From the NCBI GenBank assembly GCA_964441695.1, contig CAYYKO010000001.1, positions 26,781-90,780 of the forward strand: DNA of 64,000 nucleotides. Reading direction: 5' to 3'. Below the pieces are notes generated by a model that saw only the letters and a program-made list of their open reading frames with translations, was not told the origin of the DNA and searched no databases. Shown here one piece after another: positions 15,709 through 57,726 of this stretch. Both the position numbers and the translations under genes were made by a program. This DNA comes from an uncultured Ruminococcus sp. GTDB lineage: Bacteria > Bacillota > Clostridia > Oscillospirales > CAG-272. Position 1 is the stretch's first letter. Each line of letters starts with the position of its first letter.

Positions 15709-15737
15709 TTGAAAAATTTTGCGATTTGTAGTATTAT
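15709..15737 (+). promoter_or_regulatory. sigma-A-type promoter for pgi
   Basis: TTGAAA (15709-15714), 17 nt spacer, TATTAT (15732-15737). Confidence 0.5.
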
Positions 15738-15848
15738 ATAGGTGTACAGATACAAACATCACCGGAGAGTGCGCTACCGTCGCAAATTTGATGTCTCCGG
15801 AGGCAACCCGGAGTATATCCCGGCAGCTTGTCGGAAAGCAAGGATACT

Positions 15849-17198
15849 ATGGCACTTAAGCTCAAAACAAATTACCTTAAGAATTTCATCGACCTCGAGG
15901 AGGGTCACAGCGAGCTTGAAAAGATCTCGCATATCACAAAGGCGGCAACAGCTCTTGTTCGCGAGGGCACGGGCGCGGGCAACGCGTTCCTCGGCTGGCA
16001 CGACCTTCCCGTCAATTACGATAAGGAGGAGTTTGCACGCATTCTCGCGGCAGCTGAGAAGATCCGCAAGACCTGCTCGGTATTTATCGTTGTCGGCATA
16101 GGCGGCTCCTACCTCGGCGCACGCGCTGCTATCGAATTTGTTAAGTCTCCCCTTTACAACAGCTTCAGAGGCGACGCTCCCGCAGTATATTTCGCGGGCA
16201 ACAGCATCAGCCCCTCGGCACTTGCCGACATCGTTAAGCTCTGCGAGGGTGAGGATGTATGCATCAACGTAATTTCGAAGTCCGGTACAACGACCGAGCC
16301 CGCAGTTACCTTCAGAATTCTCAGAAAGCTTCTCGAGGATAAGTACGGCGAGGAGGGTGCGCGCGAGCGTATCTTCGTTACGACCGACCGTCAGCGCGGA
16401 AAGCTCAAGGAGTTCTCCACTGAGAAGGGCTACGAGACCTTCGTCGTTCCCGACGATATCGGCGGACGCTTCTCCGTTCTTACGGCGGTAGGTCTGCTCC
16501 CGATCGCGGTTGCGGGACTTGACATTAACGAAATGATGCGCGGTGCGGCTGACGCACGTGAGGAATACCTCTCCGATGACCCGATGACAAACAACGCGCT
16601 CGTTTACGCGGCACTTCGCAATATTCTCTATAACAAGGGCAAGAGCCTCGAGGTTCTTGTAGCATACGAGCCCTCTCTCACAATGATCTGCGAGTCTTGG
16701 AAGCAGCTCTACAGCTAGACCGAGGGCAAGGACGGAACGGGTCTGTTCCCCGCATCCGTCATCTGCTCGACAGACCTTCACTCTCTCGGTCAGTACATTC
16801 AGGAGGGAAGACGCACTATGTTCGAGACGCTTATCTCCTTTGCCGAGTCCAATGACACGGTGGAGATACCCGACGACCCGAACAACATCGACGGACTCAA
16901 CTTCCTCTCCGGCAAGGATCTGCATTACGTCAACACGATGGCAATGACCGGAACGCTTCTCGCGCACAACGACGGCGGTGTTCCGAATATCGTCATCGAG
17001 CTGCCCCGCCGCGATGAATATTCCTTCGGTAATCTCGTATATTTCTTCGAGCTTGCCTGCGCGGTATCGGGCTACATGCTCGGCGTAAACCCGTTCGACC
17101 AGCCGGGTGTCGAGGCGTACAAGAAGAATATGTACGCACTCCTCGGCAAGCCGGGCTTTGAATCTGAAAAAGAGGCTTTGGAAGCCAGAATAAACTAA
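15849..17198 (+). pseudogene. pgi: glucose-6-phosphate isomerase interrupted by one in-frame TAG (16716-16718)
   Basis: Track ORFs 15828-16718 and 16818-17198 are in the same frame. Read-through gives a 449-codon Firmicute-type PGI ([57 protein letters not shown]). The TAG is the only lesion. Confidence 0.85.
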
Positions 17199-17218: not shown

Positions 17219-17626
17219 ATGTTAAAACTCATTATCGGCGCAAAGGGATCCGGAAAGACCAAGCAGCTCATCGAGCTCGTAGGCAGCGCGCTTAATGCCA
17301 CCAACGGTTCCGTCGTTTGCATAGAAAAGGGCGACAAGCTCAAATTCGACATCAGCTATCATTGCAGACTCATCGATACAGAGGAGTATCAGGTCAAGAC
17401 AGCTCTCGGACTTTACGGCTTTGTTGCAGGCATTCTCGCAAGCAATCACGACGTTTCCGATCTCTTCATCGATTCCGCTCTCAAGATCTGCAACAACGAT
17501 CAGGAGGCATTTGATGAGTTCCTGGCTAAGGTCGATGCACTTGTCACAAAGCATAACGTAAACTGCGTTATCACATCCTCTCTCCCCGTTGAAAACGCGA
17601 GCGAGGCTGAGAAGAAGTATCTCTGA
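17219..17626 (+). CDS. small P-loop (Walker A) protein of unknown function
   Basis: 135 aa. GAKGSGKT lies at residues 7-14, and a Walker-B-like DLFIDS is present. AGGAGG RBS. It starts 20 nt after the pgi stop. Confidence 0.6.
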   Translation: MLKLIIGAKGSGKTKQLIELVGSALNATNGSVVCIEKGDKLKFDISYHCRLIDTEEYQVKTALGLYGFVAGILASNHDVSDLFIDSALKICNNDQEAFDEFLAKVDALVTKHNVNCVITSSLPVENASEAEKKYL

Positions 17627-17636
17627 GTTCAGAACA

Positions 17637-17670
17637 CAAAAAGCCGTGCCGTGTGGCGCGGCTTTTCTTG
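17637..17670 (+). terminator. intrinsic terminator
   Basis: AAGCCGTGCC-gtgt-GGCGCGGCTT forms a 10-bp stem with one G-U pair, followed by TTCTTG. Confidence 0.6.
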
Positions 17671-17790: not shown

Positions 17791-20391
17791 ATGAAAAACA
17801 AGCTCATGAATGTCCTTGCGGGCAAGAGCGAAAATCACATATTACCTTTCTTTTGGCAGCACGGAGAGGATGACGAAACGCTCCTCGCCGAGCTTCACAG
17901 GATCCATGCCTCAGGCGTCGGCTCCGTTTGCATCGAATCGCGTCCCCACGAGGAATTTGCACGCGAGGGCTGGTTCGAGGATGTCAGACTGATATTCGAC
18001 GAGTGCCGCAAGCTCGGAATGGACGCGTGGATACTCGACGACAAGTATTTCCCGACGGGCTTTTGCAACGGAGCGATTCGCGATAAGTACCCCGAATTCG
18101 GCAAGCGCGCGATAACCGAGCGCCACATGGATATCTGCGGTCCGATCGAGGACGGCGCTGTGATTTACGAGGGCTGGGCGGATGAAAAAGCGGAGGACGA
18201 GCTTCTTGCGATAATCGCATGCCGCTGCGAGGGTCCGGGTCAGGAGCTTGCGGGTGAATGCATCGACATTACGGACAAGCTGCACGACGGGCTTGTATCC
18301 GTAACTCTCCCCGACGGCATCTGGAGAGTATTCTTCATATTCGAGCGCCCCGAGCGCGACGGCAGAGTCGACTTTACAAATCCCGAGTCCGTTGACCTTA
18401 TGTTCAGCGAGATATACGAAAAGCATTACGAAAGCCTCAGCGAGTACTTCGGCAATACCTTCCGCGGATTTTTCAGCGACGAGCCCTTTATCATGGATTT
18501 CGCCGATCTTCCGCTTCGCGGAGCGTCGAATTCGAAGGGAAAGTATCCGTGGAACAGCTACATTAAGGCTGAGCTTGCAAGCCGCTACGGCGACACCTGG
18601 AAGTGCCATCTTCCCGCGCTTTGGTTCACAATGAACGGCGTGTCCCCCGCATACAGAGTCGCTTACAATGACGCGGTTTCCACACTTTATAAGACAAGCT
18701 TCGGCGACAGAGTCGGCGCATGGTGCCGCGAGCACGGCGTAATGTACATCGGTCACGTCGTCGAGGACTACAACCGCCACACCAACATGGGAAGCGGCGG
18801 ACATTATTTCCGTGCTCTCGACGGACAGGATATGGCGGGCATGGACGTGGTGCTTCACCAGATAGTCCCCGGAATGACAAATCACCCGAACGCCTGCAAC
18901 TGCTGGTATGACGTTGCCGATCCCGACCTCTTCCACTTCAGCCTTGCGAAAATGGCGGCATCGCACGCGCATATCCAGGACTCGAAGAAGGGTCGCGCAA
19001 TGTGCGAGATTTACGGAGCCTACGGCTGGAACGAGGGTCTTAAAATGATGAAGTGGCTGACAGACCACATGCTCGTTCGCGGCATCAACAATTTCGTCCC
19101 CCACGCCTTCTCGGCAAAATTCCCCGATGAGGTCCCGCCGCAGTTCACCGGAGCCGGACACAATCCGCAGGAAAAGCAGTTCCGCCTTCTGATGGAATAC
19201 ATGAACCGCGTTTCGACGCTCATGTCCGACGGCACCCACCGTGCGGACTGCGCGATACTGTATCACGCGGAGGCTGAGTGGTCGGGCGGCGATTACATGT
19301 ACTTCTACACCCCCGCAAAGCTTCTCACACTCGGTCACATCGACTTCGATATCGTTTCCGCGGATTACCTCGTGCGTGCGGAGGCTAAGGACGGAAGGCT
19401 TTACCTCGGACGCGAGAGCTACCCGGCGCTCGTCGTTCCGATGTCGGAATTCCTCCCCGAGTCGACGGTAGCACAGCTCGAGAGGCTTTCAAACGCGGGC
19501 GTCGATGTTATATTCCTTGACCGGCTTACGAAGAAGACCTGCGAGAAGCCTGCCGCACGTATCGAATGGCCCGATAACGGACACATCAGCTGCATTCCCG
19601 CAGAGGATCTCGTGATGAGCATGCGCGAGAGAGGATATTTCGACATCACAACCTCGACCGAGGCTGAATTCCTCAGATATTACCACTATTATAACGGCAA
19701 TACTCACGCATACATGCTCACGAACGAGGGAATCGTCGACGACGTGCTCACCTCGCTCACCTTTGAGGCGTTCGACGGCGGAGATTACGTTGTATATTAC
19801 CCGATGGAGAACCGCGCGTACCTTGCACACAGCAACGACAGAAGCCTGCGTGTTCGCCTGGAGCCCTACGAGTCGGTAATTATCTTCTTCGGAGATATCC
19901 CGACAGAGCTTCCGAAATACGTGAAGTACGCTCCAGACCGCGAGACTGTCGTCGAGCCGAGCTTCAAGGTGTCGATGTACACGGCGGAAAATTATCCGAA
20001 TGCGCCGATGGCGACCTTCGAGACGGATAAGCTGTGCAACCTCACGGCGGCAGATAAGTACCCGCGCTTTGGCGGCTTTATGAAGTACGAGGGCAGCTTC
20101 GAGTACGACGATGACACAGACGCGCACACGCTGCTCGACCTCGGTCGCGTCGGCGAGACCGCGCAGGTATTCTTAAACGGCACGCCTGTCGGCGAGAGAA
20201 TTGCGCCTCCGTATCGCTTCGACGTTTCGGGCGTTATAAGACGCGGCAAAAACGAGCTGTGCGTCGTTGTGACCAACCACCTCGGCTACGAGCAGCGCGA
20301 CCTTTGCGCGAAGTATCTCGTTATGGAGCCGTCGGGACTCCTCGGACCTATCGAGATCCGAAAGACCGCGAGAGTGAGCACCGATGAGTAA
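17791..20391 (+). CDS. putative glycoside hydrolase with C-terminal galactose-binding-like jelly-roll domain
   Basis: 866 aa, no signal peptide. The C-terminal LLDLGRVGETAQVFLNGTPVGERIAPPYRFDVSG is the typical sugar-binding jelly-roll pattern of GH2/GH106-like enzymes. The family assignment is uncertain. Confidence 0.5.
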   Translation: MKNKLMNVLAGKSENHILPFFWQHGEDDETLLAELHRIHASGVGSVCIESRPHEEFAREGWFEDVRLIFDECRKLGMDAWILDDKYFPTGFCNGAIRDKYPEFGKRAITERHMDICGPIEDGAVIYEGWADEKAEDELLAIIACRCEGPGQELAGECIDITDKLHDGLVSVTLPDGIWRVFFIFERPERDGRVDFTNPESVDLMFSEIYEKHYESLSEYFGNTFRGFFSDEPFIMDFADLPLRGASNSKGKYPWNSYIKAELASRYGDTWKCHLPALWFTMNGVSPAYRVAYNDAVSTLYKTSFGDRVGAWCREHGVMYIGHVVEDYNRHTNMGSGGHYFRALDGQDMAGMDVVLHQIVPGMTNHPNACNCWYDVADPDLFHFSLAKMAASHAHIQDSKKGRAMCEIYGAYGWNEGLKMMKWLTDHMLVRGINNFVPHAFSAKFPDEVPPQFTGAGHNPQEKQFRLLMEYMNRVSTLMSDGTHRADCAILYHAEAEWSGGDYMYFYTPAKLLTLGHIDFDIVSADYLVRAEAKDGRLYLGRESYPALVVPMSEFLPESTVAQLERLSNAGVDVIFLDRLTKKTCEKPAARIEWPDNGHISCIPAEDLVMSMRERGYFDITTSTEAEFLRYYHYYNGNTHAYMLTNEGIVDDVLTSLTFEAFDGGDYVVYYPMENRAYLAHSNDRSLRVRLEPYESVIIFFGDIPTELPKYVKYAPDRETVVEPSFKVSMYTAENYPNAPMATFETDKLCNLTAADKYPRFGGFMKYEGSFEYDDDTDAHTLLDLGRVGETAQVFLNGTPVGERIAPPYRFDVSGVIRRGKNELCVVVTNHLGYEQRDLCAKYLVMEPSGLLGPIEIRKTARVSTDE

Positions 20392-47900: not shown

Positions 47901-49364
47901 CCATTTGAGACCTTCCTCGGCTTCTACGGAGACAAGGTGCCCGATATCGATCTTAACTTTTCCGGAGACGTTCAGGCGGACGCGCACAAGTTCACCGAGG
48001 TGCTCTTTGGCACGGGCAAAGCCTTCCGCGCCGGTACCATCGGTACTCTTGCCGCAAAGACCGCCTACGGCTTCGTCGCGCGCTATCTCGAGGAGCGCGG
48101 AATTTCCGTCAACCGCGCCGAAAGCGAGCGGCTGATCGCCGGCTGCGTCGGAGTCAAGCGCACCACGGGTCAGCATCCGGGAGGAATAATCGTTGTTCCC
48201 GCAGAGCACGACGTGTACGAGTTCTGCCCCGTGCAGCACCCCGCCGACGACCCGAATTCCTCGATAATCACGACTCACTTCGAGTTCAAGTATCTGCACG
48301 ACACGATACTGAAGCTCGATATACTCGGACACGATATTCCGACTAAGTACAAGCGACTTGAAGAATATTCCGGAATGAACATCCTCGACGTGCCGCTGTC
48401 CGACCCGCAGGTGTACAAGCTCTTTACGTCGACCGAGCCGCTCGGAGTCACGCCTCAGCAGATAAACAGCGAGACCGGCACGCTCGGACTGCCCGAGATG
48501 GGTACGAAGTTCATCAGAGGCGTGCTTATGGCTGCACAGCCGAAGACCTTTGCCGACCTCTTGCAGATATCGGGGCTCACCCACGGCACGGGAGTCTGGC
48601 TCGGAAATGCGGACGAGCTTATCAAAAACAACGTCTGCACGATATCCGACGTTATCGGGTGCCGTGACGATATCATGCTTTACCTGATCCAAAAGCACGA
48701 CCTTGATAAGAGCCACGCGTTCAAGATAATGGAGGACGTGCGAAAGGGAAAGGGGCTCAAGCCCGAGTACGAGCAGGAAATGCGCGAGCACGGCGTGCCC
48801 GATTGGTACATCGAGTCGTGCAAGAAGATAAAATACATGTTCCCGAAGGCGCACGCGGCAGCATATGTTATGGACGCGCTGCGACTCGGCTGGTATAAGA
48901 TATATCACCCGGACGTTTTCTACGCCGCGTACTTTACCGCCGCGCCGTCAGGCTTTGACGCCGAGATAGTAATGGGCGGCAAGGAGCGCGTCGCCGCCGT
49001 CATCAAGGAATATTCGCGCCCCGGTGCCGAGCTGTCGCAGAAGGAAGCAGACACGCTCGACGCGCTGAACCTTGTCAATGAGTGCTATCAGCGGGGATAT
49101 TCGTTCCTGCCGGTCGACTTTGCGACCTCGGACGCGCATAAATACGTTCCCGAAAACGGAAAAATACGCCTTCCGCTCGATTCGCTCCCCGGAGTCGGCT
49201 CGGCTGCGGCGGAAAGCATTGTCGCCGCGAGGGAAAGAGGACCGATATATTCGATAGACGACCTGAAGCGCGAGAGCGGAATGTCAAAGTCCGTTCAGGA
49301 GATACTTGAGCGAAACGGCGTCCTGAAGGAGCTCTCGCGCACTAACCAGCTTACAATGTTTTAG
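44937..49364 (+). CDS. polC: DNA polymerase III alpha subunit, PolC type
   Basis: About 1475 aa. It has a PHP domain (ELHAHTNMSAMDA), an inserted DEDD exonuclease (FDIETTGLS, HNASFD, HRACDDA), a Zn finger (CLKC...CPVCG) and the polymerase core. TAG stop. Confidence 0.95.
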   Translation: MGEARKTLYDRFGRYDPVGIHRVIYDKAVVSSVKLDRERRIVELAVELPELFDKTDIYSLEEALCAAYELRLVRILTKYPSECFDMSYLPQVILEARRVGSVVNGFFSHMKTSLDGDSIHIAIPFSAGAIELHDMAHTAAVISNIIASEFGLRFNVKIEQTEDADARYAEHVSRQLAELNTRSQSIAAAEERRMASAAAAQSGEAAPVEETVKLPRAYSLFEGSDTVSRDTDNENIIISGRMRFDSSTIEVLLGHDPSLDELIPLRAVKSVGRGVSIIGEVFAVTEKETRRGDKLTVTVGITDRDASLFIKSTVDPEGAEELKSMFGVGKSVIVKGNIKADSFDGELFMQYSEVAQIERVLREDNAPEKRVELHAHTNMSAMDALTKPDELVKTAARWGHGAVAVTDHGNLQSFPIAMLTAEKLGGKVKVLYGVEAYFVDDTQRAAYRGEGITFDDEFAVFDIETTGLSAATCAITEIGAVIIKKGEILDRFNTFVNPGVPIPEKITQLTGITDEMVADAPDISEVLPRFFEFCGDRMLVAHNASFDTSFIRAAAERCGLPFVSPYLDTVAMSHYVNPTAKNHKLDTLAQLYGLGDFNHHRACDDAEMLALIFDKMTSRLKEEGILDIDRMNYVMSERADPLKLRTYHQIILVKNKTGLKNLYKLVSDSYLKYYKRNPRIPKTRLTELREGLIIGSACEAGELFRAMLDNRPEDELIEMASFYDYLEIQPICNNMFLVAEGKVADEEGLRELNRRIIDIGKKAGRPVVATCDAHYLDPEDEIYRRILLAGMKFKDADHETKLYYRTTEEMLAEFEYLGEQTAREVVITNPRRIADMIETVRPIPEGNYPPHIDGAEEELTEKCHALAREMYGDVPPEEVTSRLDRELDSIIKNGFAIMYIIARKLVENSEAKGYQVGSRGSVGSSFAATMAGITKVNPLPPHYRCLKCKYSDFHDFKTEQPDVKSGFDLAPKKCPVCGEELYRDGHDIPFETFLGFYGDKVPDIDLNFSGDVQADAHKFTEVLFGTGKAFRAGTIGTLAAKTAYGFVARYLEERGISVNRAESERLIAGCVGVKRTTGQHPGGIIVVPAEHDVYEFCPVQHPADDPNSSIITTHFEFKYLHDTILKLDILGHDIPTKYKRLEEYSGMNILDVPLSDPQVYKLFTSTEPLGVTPQQINSETGTLGLPEMGTKFIRGVLMAAQPKTFADLLQISGLTHGTGVWLGNADELIKNNVCTISDVIGCRDDIMLYLIQKHDLDKSHAFKIMEDVRKGKGLKPEYEQEMREHGVPDWYIESCKKIKYMFPKAHAAAYVMDALRLGWYKIYHPDVFYAAYFTAAPSGFDAEIVMGGKERVAAVIKEYSRPGAELSQKEADTLDALNLVNECYQRGYSFLPVDFATSDAHKYVPENGKIRLPLDSLPGVGSAAAESIVAARERGPIYSIDDLKRESGMSKSVQEILERNGVLKELSRTNQLTMF

Positions 49365-51026: not shown

Positions 51027-52307
51027 ATGAAAAAGATCCTTTCTGTTCTTCTCGCAGTTGCCATGCTCGCAGCTCTCTGCTGCGCTTGCACATCCTGCGG
51101 CAAGGACGACAACGAGGACAACAAGACCGCTGCCACAACGCTTAACGGCGATATGGTAAAGGCCAACGCTCCCGTGGAGGCTGATGCAGACGCAGATAAG
51201 TCTGATTTCAAGATCGGCTTTATCCTTCTCCACGACGAAAACTCCACCTACGACAAGAACTTTATCGACGCAGCTCTCAAGGTTAAGGAAGAGTTCGGTC
51301 TGACGGACGAGCAGGTCGTCTTCAAGTCCAACACTCCCGAGTCCAACGAGTGCTACGAGGCTGCCGCTGCTTTCGCTGACGACGGCTGCGACATCGTTTT
51401 TGCTGACTCCTTCGGTCACGAGAGCCACATTATCCGCGCTGCACGTGAGTTCCCCGAGGTTCAGTTCTGCCATGCTACGGGTACTCAGGCACAGATCGCC
51501 GGCCTTGACAACTTCCACAACGCATTTGCCTCCATCTACGAGGGCAGATACCTTGTAGGTGTTGCCGCAGGTATGAAGCTTAACGAGATGATCGAGAGCG
51601 GCGAGATCACAGCTGACCAGGCTAAGATCGGTTACGTCGGCGCGTTCAACTACGCAGAGGTCGTTTCCGGCTTTACCTCCTTCTTCCTCGGCGCGAGAAG
51701 CGTTTGCCCCTCCGCTACAATGGAAGTCGTTTATACAAACTCCTGGTTTGACATTGCACTCGAGAAGGAAGCTGCAAACAAGCTTATGGATAGCAACTGC
51801 GTACTTATCAGCCAGCACGCTGACTCCGAGGGCGCTCCCAAGGCCTGCGAGGCAAGAGGCGTTCCGAACGTAGCTTACAACATCAGCACGATCTCCATGG
51901 CTCCCACAACAGCTCTTATTTCCTCTAAGATCGACTGGGCTCCTTACTTCAGAACCATCATCAACGCAGAGCTCAACGGTGAGAAGATCCCCTCCGACTG
52001 GTGCGGCTCTCTCGCATCCGAGTCTGTTGTTCTCACAGAGCTCAACGAGGATGTAGCTGCCGAGGGCACGGCTGATGCTATCGCCGAGGCTATCGAGGCT
52101 CTCAAGAACGGCGAGCTCAAGGTATTCGACACATCCAAGTTTACCGTTGACGGTAAGACTCTCGATGAGTACCTGGCAGACGTCATCACAGACGATGCAT
52201 TCACTCCCGACACCAATGTTGTTGCAAACGGTATCTTTGACGAGTCCGCTAAGAGAAGCGCTCCGTACTTCGATATCAAGTACATCGACGGTATCAAGGA
52301 AAACTGA
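51027..52307 (+). CDS. BMP-family (PnrA/NupN-like) ABC substrate-binding lipoprotein
   Basis: Lipoprotein signal MKKILSVLLAVAMLAALCCACTSC. BMP-family blocks follow (KIGFILLHDENSTYDKNF, IGYVGAFNYAEVVSG). It precedes a 2-domain ATPase and two permeases. Confidence 0.85.
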   Translation: MKKILSVLLAVAMLAALCCACTSCGKDDNEDNKTAATTLNGDMVKANAPVEADADADKSDFKIGFILLHDENSTYDKNFIDAALKVKEEFGLTDEQVVFKSNTPESNECYEAAAAFADDGCDIVFADSFGHESHIIRAAREFPEVQFCHATGTQAQIAGLDNFHNAFASIYEGRYLVGVAAGMKLNEMIESGEITADQAKIGYVGAFNYAEVVSGFTSFFLGARSVCPSATMEVVYTNSWFDIALEKEAANKLMDSNCVLISQHADSEGAPKACEARGVPNVAYNISTISMAPTTALISSKIDWAPYFRTIINAELNGEKIPSDWCGSLASESVVLTELNEDVAAEGTADAIAEAIEALKNGELKVFDTSKFTVDGKTLDEYLADVITDDAFTPDTNVVANGIFDESAKRSAPYFDIKYIDGIKEN

Positions 52308-56170: not shown

Positions 56171-56210
56171 AATATGCGTCGGTAAACACATTGCCGCGAA
56201 AACAGAATAC

Positions 56211-56296
56211 GGAGAGATATCGAAGTGGTCATAACGGGGCTGACTCGAAATCAGTTTGCGAGCAATCGCACGAGGGTTCGAATCCCTCTCTCTCCG
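56211..56296 (+). tRNA. tRNA-Ser (anticodon CGA), class II with long variable arm; CCA not encoded
   Basis: Hand-folded. Acceptor GGAGAGA/TCTCTCC. T-arm GAGGG-TTCGAAT-CCCTC. Anticodon stem GCTGA/TCAGT with loop CTCGAAA. 5-bp variable stem TGCGA/TCGCA. Confidence 0.85.
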
Positions 56297-56300
56297 ATAA

Positions 56301-56497: not shown

Positions 56498-56647
56498 ATG
56501 GCACTTGAAAATAAATTAGGACTGATAAGATCCGCTGACATTGCCCGTGAGAAAAACGCACAAGCAAGAAAAAGACTCAAGATGTTCACGCTGAGCCCGA
56601 CATGCTTTGGCATCTCCGGCACGACTTGTGTTGTTAAGGAGGGATGA
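56498..56647 (+). pseudogene. 49-codon ORF resembling the N-terminus of Fic/DOC-family proteins (probable remnant or leader ORF)
   Basis: MALENKLGLIRSADIAREKNAQARKRLKMF... resembles the MxLENKLGIxxxxELAxxEExISKK start I recall for Firmicute Fic proteins. No Fic core (HPFxxGNGR) follows. GGAG RBS. Confidence 0.4.
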
Positions 56648-56652
56648 TCGCT

Positions 56653-57726
56653 ATGAAAATCCTATTTTCGAGACAGGGCAAATCTTGTTGTGTTGTCGAT
56701 AAGGAGCGTCGTATTTTTTGCATCGACGATGTTTACCTTGACATTGAAGGCAAAGAAGTTACGAACGAAGATTCCTTTCACAAAACGCAAAGCATCTACG
56801 ACGATTGTTGGTATCAATATTGGATGGATGATGAAGGATTGCCGGAAGCACTGAAAGCCGAATCAACGGTTGAGCTCGAATGGGATATTGATGACGCCTT
56901 CGGTGTTTTCGGTTTCAAAAATCGAGCGGGAGAATTTGTGATTGAGCCGCAATATGCTTATGCTCATAATTTCACAAAGGGTCTCGCTTCGGTGAACCTG
57001 AACAGGACATGGTATAAGACTCCGGAAGGCAGAAGGTACTACGAAAATCACTACGGATATATTGACGGAAACGGGAAAACCGTGATCGGATTCCGGTATG
57101 ATGAGGCATATCCGTTCAATAAATACGGCGTGGCACTGGTTTCCGATCCGGAAGCCGGTTGGTACTTGATCGATATGCAGGGAAACGAAATTCCCAATAC
57201 ACGATTTCCGTATATATCTCTGTATGATTATGAAGACCGATATTTGGAATTTTCAAATGATGATGACAATGCTCTGATTGGGCTTTATGATACAAAAGAG
57301 AGGAAAATTTTACTTGAGCCGAGATTCAGCGAGGTGATTGTAAGTGACGATGACCATATTCTTGTGTATGAAAGAGATGGAGAATATGGAGAAAGCGATT
57401 TCAGACAATACTATGTAAATAGCAGCGGTGAGCTGATTTATCCGTGGCTTACGAAGCACAGATTTGCTATTGTTGAGCAACCGGATGTTAATGATATTAC
57501 GGCAGTTGCAATTTCTCAATATACCGAGCTCACAGGAAGTCCGAGCGGCTTATTTCAGCACGATGGGAAGAAATATAAAAGGAAATTTATTTACGGATTG
57601 TTCTCATCGCACGAAGAGCTCTTGCTGCCGCTTGAATACGACAAGATAAGCAAATTACACGACGATATTTGGAGCTGCTATAAAGCCGGTATCTTCACAC
57701 TTGTTCAAACTGAGCCAAATGATTGA
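56653..57726 (+). CDS. WG-repeat (KWG-like) protein of unknown function
   Basis: It has repeated units of the type GFKNRAGEFVIEPQYAYAHNFTKGLASV, YGYIDGNGKTVIGFRYDEAYPFNKYGVALV and WYLIDMQGNEI. No signal peptide. ATG 56653 is 9 nt after AAGGAGGG. AT-rich codon usage. Confidence 0.7.
   Translation: MKILFSRQGKSCCVVDKERRIFCIDDVYLDIEGKEVTNEDSFHKTQSIYDDCWYQYWMDDEGLPEALKAESTVELEWDIDDAFGVFGFKNRAGEFVIEPQYAYAHNFTKGLASVNLNRTWYKTPEGRRYYENHYGYIDGNGKTVIGFRYDEAYPFNKYGVALVSDPEAGWYLIDMQGNEIPNTRFPYISLYDYEDRYLEFSNDDDNALIGLYDTKERKILLEPRFSEVIVSDDDHILVYERDGEYGESDFRQYYVNSSGELIYPWLTKHRFAIVEQPDVNDITAVAISQYTELTGSPSGLFQHDGKKYKRKFIYGLFSSHEELLLPLEYDKISKLHDDIWSCYKAGIFTLVQTEPND

Follow-up and report, generated by a model that had tools for sequence, protein, structure and literature searches.

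Does a housekeeping gene that is open from end to end, except for one TAG at the codon of its catalytic glutamate, reflect a special decoding of that TAG, a strain that has just lost the enzyme, or an error in the assembled sequence? This question is raised by the pgi gene found at 15849-17198 of the forward strand in the 64-kb stretch of DNA that was analyzed here as a whole, called the window below. A preliminary description of the locus had listed three options: a sequencing or assembly error, a very recent knockout, and leaky or programmed read-through.

The in-frame stop codon of pgi

Translation of 15849-17198 (forward strand) gave 449 codons closed by a terminal TAA and containing one internal stop, a TAG at 16716-16718 (forward strand, codon 290), which is the sole interruption of the frame; the full-length gene with a single in-frame TAG reported in the preliminary description was recovered. 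The N-terminal open part takes up codons 1-289 (15849-16715, forward strand), and the remainder (codons 291-449 and the TAA, 16719-17198, forward strand) continues in an intact frame. When the stop was read through, the protein matched the Pfam family PGI (PF00342, E = 1.7e-22) over its full length and was 96% identical to P0001, an uninterrupted homologue. PGI enzymes of the Bacillus type have about 445-450 aa. Past the TAG, the sole restart open to a gene caller is an ATG at 16818, and the split products are 289 aa and 126 aa long.

The best solved relative of the read-through protein was the PGI of Geobacillus stearothermophilus (1B0Z/2PGI, E = 3e-169, residues 20-448). In this alignment the stop takes the place of chain residue 285, the Glu in FGESEGKD; 21 residues past it comes the conserved His (H311), the same distance as had been noted from the letters alone. 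H311 and K425, the active-site His and the C-terminal Lys, are invariant alignment columns and both are kept in the frame of the window. The catalytic Glu of the family signature (G/M)ES(E/N)GK is the residue that is missing, codon 290 being TAG; at the DNA level this codon is GAG in contigs L001-L006, L019 and L088. A local pairwise alignment to a fragment of human GPI placed the stop on the E of MESNGK, Glu357 of the mammalian enzyme. Both alignments agree with the earlier assignment of the TAG to the catalytic-Glu codon, and a profile alignment with the same human fragment covered the C-terminal part only. That Glu357 acts in catalysis is established (Jeffery et al. 2001, as cited in PMC8354745). 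A literature search for PGI catalytic residues in Bacillus numbering found nothing.

Genomic context of pgi

The promoter of pgi had been described as intact, and a promoter-like site (TTGAAA-17-TATTAT, 10 of 12 matches) was indeed found at 15709-15737 of the forward strand, followed by a leader of about 110 nt. No Rfam match to a regulatory RNA was obtained for this leader. It contains a 7-bp inverted repeat at 15762-15800 (CCGGAGA and TCTCCGG, separated by a loop of about 25 nt). In the sister species no stop closes the leader in the pgi frame, and the called PGI is thereby inflated to 485 aa. Downstream of pgi, at 17219-17626 of the forward strand, lies a gene for a 135-aa protein with a GxxGxGKT-like motif (GAKGSGKT) and no Pfam family. 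This protein is encoded directly after pgi in all relatives and is 100% identical in five other contigs; the gene is thus a conserved partner of pgi. It is probably co-transcribed with pgi. A terminator-like hairpin with a T run at 17648-17662 (forward strand) closes the unit formed by pgi and the 135-aa gene.

The Pfam families assigned in the window (pth, mfd, ABC exporters, dacB, pgi, GH106, ffh, rpsP, rimM, trmD, pyrH, frr, uppS, cdsA, dxr, rseP, ispG, polC, a Bmp-type ABC importer and spoIIIA) show that it is an ordinary stretch of housekeeping genes from a spore-former of the Clostridia. Three other features of the window deserve a separate mention. In the GH106 gene, thirteen private differences from three near-conspecific contigs lie at 17907-17997, all on a 3-nt register; they presumably occupy third codon positions and resemble a short tract acquired by recombination with another lineage. 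Between 56000 and 58000 the GC content drops to 0.42, against about 0.55, in a stretch that contains a tRNA-Ser(CGA) at 56210-56297 and a 360-aa WG-repeat protein at 56644-57726. Since the codon-usage model did not accept this protein as native, it is possibly a foreign insertion beside the tRNA. The Bmp/PnrA-like lipoprotein (51027-52304) has 12 private substitutions in residues 26-56, within an N-terminal linker rich in T, D, N and A, and a single difference outside it (T305A). This segment looks like a naturally hypervariable low-complexity linker and is the one dense spot among the 15 proteins compared with relatives.

A dense patch of substitutions around the stop codon

The preliminary description had pointed out that a single G-to-T change from GAG would produce the TAG. 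This is true of the codon, but it overlooks that the change is one of seven dense substitutions, found only in this assembly, that occupy 53 nt at 16686-16738 of the forward strand, where the relatives are wild type. On that strand the changes are T>A at 16686 (F280I), GG>CT at 16696-16697 (W283S), G>A at 16713 (G289S), G>T at 16716 (E290*), T>A at 16719 (S291T) and A>C at 16738 (K297T), the original bases being T, G, G, G, G, T and A. There are no indels. The six altered codons specify residues that are identical in 16 of the 16 closest relatives aligned.

Compared with the near-conspecific contig L019, 7 of 32 differences fall within 53 of 975 nt (P = 0.0014) and six of the seven non-synonymous codons within 18 of 324 codons (P = 2e-7). 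This clustering is not due to chance. The kind of change also differs: transversions make up 6/7 changes in the patch versus 8/25 elsewhere in the gene (Fisher P = 0.027), and codon positions 1 or 2 are hit by 6/7 changes in the patch versus 2/25 elsewhere (P = 2e-4). In both respects the patch resembles random or near-random, unselected base replacement, not natural variation that has passed a filter, in a gene where strict purifying selection otherwise holds.

Conservation of pgi among relatives

The GESEGK motif was kept in all 129 of the 129 close homologues retrieved and in 77 of the 80 species-representative loci, and the variant residues of the patch were present in 0 of about 200 homologues examined. 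The closest full-length relative, P0001 (Logan contigs L001-L006), belongs to a sister species with 87% DNA identity. Against it we counted 156 synonymous and 17 non-synonymous codons; six of these 17 make up the patch, and the 11 others lie at variable sites, with no frameshift outside the patch.

Only two sequences from the same or a very close species span the TAG site. One of them, L019/L087 (NCBI MAG GCA_964397225.1), covers codons 126-449 with an identity of about 97% within pgi and about 94% over 4-5 kb. All seven patch sites are wild type in this contig; outside the patch, L019 differs by 24 synonymous changes and one conservative V381I. The other, L088 (SRR22923216), begins only at codon 287, and the four patch sites that it covers all have the wild-type base. 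The relatives checked at the DNA level have GAG, and the alignment proposed in the preliminary description thus showed a TAG that is not conserved in the closest pgi genes. Outside the patch, pgi is by these comparisons under clean purifying selection.

Several simpler accounts of the locus were tried and rejected. A gross chimera at the TAG site is contradicted by the identity to L019, which is similar on both flanks, and by the synteny (ABC exporters, dacB, pgi, the 135-aa gene, GH106), which is the same as in relatives. A decaying pseudogene is contradicted by the lack of further lesions or relaxed selection outside 16686-16738. Stepwise decay after the stop is excluded because the six other changes lie within about 30 nt of the stop instead of being spread over 1350 nt (a probability of (53/1350)^6, about 4e-9), and because the other 431 codons have only conservative or variable-site changes. 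With stepwise accumulation excluded, the seven changes must have arisen together, either in one complex mutational event in DNA or in an error-laden read path in the data.

Occurrence of the allele in sequence collections

In an exact look-up within a collection of 15 billion proteins, which does not reach contig-end fragments, the 289-aa and the 126-aa products were each found only from one NCBI contig, evidently the source of the window. When homologues were searched with the read-through protein or its N-terminal fragment, no truncated twin came up among the 90%-cluster representatives that such searches list. At the DNA level, a same-species pattern with N at the seven sites had no match in the JGI metagenomes. 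The patch is absent from every other sequence examined.

A degenerate scan of the JGI metagenomes for WKQLYx-TAG-xEGKD returned just two contigs and did not recover the present allele. The two are unrelated metagenome contigs. In L093 (OLQD01045363.1, 482-516) a TAG replaces the catalytic Glu codon of pgi, and GC3 changes from 0.46 before it to 0.91 after it; this jump exactly at the TAG marks a chimeric join. In L092 (JAEIGA010086525.1, 35-69) the TAG, again in place of the catalytic Glu codon, is found at nt 52, close to the contig end. Both contigs are assembly trouble spots at the pgi block in other metagenomes and are independent support for an artefact.

Shared k-mers and a possible assembly origin

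We reverted the seven changes and looked, within the loci fetched, for exact k-mers that the gene has in common with pgi from other species. With k = 31, the only shared blocks of the reverted gene were 16691-16733 (4 species) and 16881-16918 (2 species). At k = 21, sharing was maximal at 16687-16746, reaching as many as 9 species in addition to the sister species, and the reverted 53-nt patch ranked 16 among 1298 positions, in essence the peak of the whole gene. The patch contains 55 shared 21-mers when reverted versus 0 as assembled, and the error-free gaps between its changes (9, 0, 15, 2, 2 and 18 nt) are all shorter than 21 nt. The lesion coincides with sequence that is exactly common to other genomes.

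We infer from this coincidence a mechanism at the level of the assembly graph, with a low-coverage short-read metagenome as the source. The true sequence at 16686-16738 would be the wild-type block ATGTTCTGCGAGTGGTGGAAGCAGCTCTACGGCGAGTCCGAGGGCAAGGACGGAAAG. Being exactly common to many co-resident Oscillospiraceae-like species, this block would form an inter-species repeat node in the metagenome's de Bruijn graph, and the flanks of a low-abundance genome would be weak edges beside this high-coverage node, which assemblers would disconnect or remove. The assemblers metaSPAdes, IDBA-UD and MEGAHIT use coverage ratios of adjacent edges, and weak edges are disconnected by metaSPAdes and removed by IDBA-UD and MEGAHIT (PMC5411777). 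A read or duplicated fragment with a burst of base-call errors across the block would have no k-mer in common with the repeat node. It would offer a private, coverage-consistent path bridging the left and right flanks and would be retained in the contig, one of its seven errors having turned the GAG of the catalytic Glu into TAG. Such a private bypass path would account for both the extent and the density of the patch. Low coverage is plausible since near-identical strains in public runs (Logan assemblies; L097 at 100% and L100 at 99.9%) yielded only contigs of 1-2.4 kb, and several MAG contigs of relatives (13-90 kb) have SPAdes coverage tags of 1.6-3.8. The runs SRR14160763 and SRR22923249 contain strains that are 100% and 99.9% identical.

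Several observations argue against an artefact. The rest of the window is clean, with about 55 genes intact. In 15 other proteins (7,267 aa) compared with relatives at an identity of at least 90%, private substitutions were few, scattered and conservative, and about 7.9 kb of near-conspecific DNA had only third-position variation and no other error patch. Since the window is otherwise clean, error patches are rare in this assembly. In addition, the length of the source contig (101,758 nt) argues against extremely low coverage, and, with assemblers that demand that a k-mer occur at least 2 times, the same errors would have to be present in two reads.

Alternative explanations

One alternative is that the TAG is decoded, by pyrrolysine, a suppressor tRNA or near-cognate read-through, to give a full-length and possibly regulated PGI. 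In its favour, the reading frame is uninterrupted before and after the TAG, the catalytic His and Lys further downstream are retained, an A follows the stop, and TAG is the rarest stop of the window, as had been stated (TAA 27, TGA 24 and TAG 4 including pgi, in the 55-gene model). However, TAG is a working stop here, since it ends three intact genes, dacB, rseP (where TAG is followed by TAA, as described before) and polC. DacB (398 aa) and PolC (1475 aa) do not differ in length from relatives that are 94-98% identical, and the polC terminator TAGACC at 49359-49364 has the same six bases as pgi at 16716-16721. No other gene of the window has an in-frame TAG or is split, no tRNA with a CUA anticodon is present in the 64 kb (the sole tRNA is Ser-CGA), and no pyl families were found among the about 50 Pfam-annotated proteins of the window. 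Near-cognate read-through would rarely insert Glu. Even an inserted Glu would leave a damaged active-site block, as five further conserved residues are replaced, including W283S and G289S, and the near-conspecific contigs L019/L087 and L088 have GAG at a position where Glu is kept by every homologue examined. The read-through option of the preliminary description is effectively rejected, and we consider decoding of the TAG highly improbable. Gene conversion, or recombination over a short patch, with a diverged copy of pgi as donor (paralogue, pseudogene or foreign DNA) fares little better and is very unlikely in our judgment. SNP clusters in bacteria are usually recombinational, conserved blocks are favoured crossover points, and the third-position run in the GH106 gene resembles such a tract. 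But a functional donor would bring mostly synonymous changes, when none of those seen here is purely synonymous and six conserved residues are changed; the variant residues occur in none of the homologues; and the allele was not recovered by the degenerate JGI scan. The window holds no second pgi, no matching k-mer of at least 12 nt that could be a donor or template of the patch, and no meaningful inverted or direct repeat. The dense and localised changes would also fit a diversity-generating retroelement (DGR), or a system like it, that directs hypermutation to this site, a reading that we rate as the least probable of all. The bases changed are not adenine-specific, the window has neither a template repeat nor a reverse transcriptase, and the target would be a housekeeping active site with a stop codon as the outcome.

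More serious is the possibility that the lesion is real DNA, a strain-private and very recent null allele in which one burst gave the seven substitutions and abolished PGI. Such a burst could stem from an error-prone repair patch, from clustered oxidative lesions or from the uptake of a short patch of damaged DNA; a strain of this kind would lack G6P/F6P interconversion or rely on another route. Some bacteria, E. coli among them, tolerate the loss of pgi. The sequence stands as assembled within an otherwise clean 64-kb window, the promoter, RBS and remaining frame are intact, as expected of a lesion too young for further decay, and G is the base hit in four of the seven changes, G>T and G>C among them, in keeping with oxidative damage. 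On the other side, stepwise decay being excluded, a one-step burst is required, and it would be very unusual for it to place seven changes in 53 nt when the window offers neither a donor nor a quasi-palindrome as template. Neither the near-conspecific contigs nor the collections searched yielded the allele. Its near-exact overlap with the shared-k-mer block would lack a biological reason and amount to a coincidence of about 1%. We therefore regard the recent knockout of the preliminary description as a surviving option of appreciable weight, short of an even chance, and second to the artefact. The latter is favoured because the patch coincides with an inter-species repeat block, which a biological burst has no reason to do. 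The option of a sequencing or assembly error has gained from the absence of the patch in relatives; we incline, with modest confidence, to consider the TAG as part of a local assembly error patch and not as a feature of the organism.

Neither of these two leading readings is a new biological system. If the null allele is true, it would represent a naturally PGI-null gut Clostridia strain and a rare natural case of dense short-patch hypermutation without a donor, a modest curiosity. For the analysis of metagenomes, the locus calls for caution. An in-frame stop at the catalytic codon of a perfect gene mimics recoding, and the decisive clue is in the neighbouring private substitutions. Reverting private changes and checking their overlap with k-mers shared between species is a test that requires no reads and could flag assembly-born pseudogenes in metagenome-assembled genomes, which would otherwise distort metabolic reconstructions (glycolysis appearing incomplete, for example) and inflate pseudogene counts.

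Comparison with known systems

The lesion in pgi is comparable to metagenome assembly errors at inter-genomic repeats, as it sits on the most k-mer-shared block of the gene, consists of substitutions only, occurs in one assembly only, and has a counterpart in L093, which is chimeric at the same codon. It differs from the usual errors of this type, which are chimeras of real sequences, in that the path contains novel bases and needs an error-laden read. An ordinary nonsense pseudogene would likewise be a housekeeping gene split by one stop (here into 289 aa and 126 aa) with loss of a catalytic residue, but pgi has no other decay outside the 53-nt patch, and six substitutions crowd the stop. With programmed UAG decoding (pyrrolysine, suppressor tRNAs, reassignment) it shares an in-frame TAG in an intact gene and the rarity of TAG as a stop. 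Unlike in those systems, the TAG is not conserved, it stops neighbouring genes, and the window lacks the machinery; moreover, we know of no UAG decoding system that would restore the catalytic Glu. Finally, the patch recalls the multi-nucleotide mutation clusters left by error-prone polymerases or clustered damage, which extend over tens of bases and are transversion-rich and G-biased. Reported bacterial events of this kind usually comprise 2-3 changes, whereas seven changes in 53 nt, placed on a repeat block that matters to assemblers, are not typical of them.
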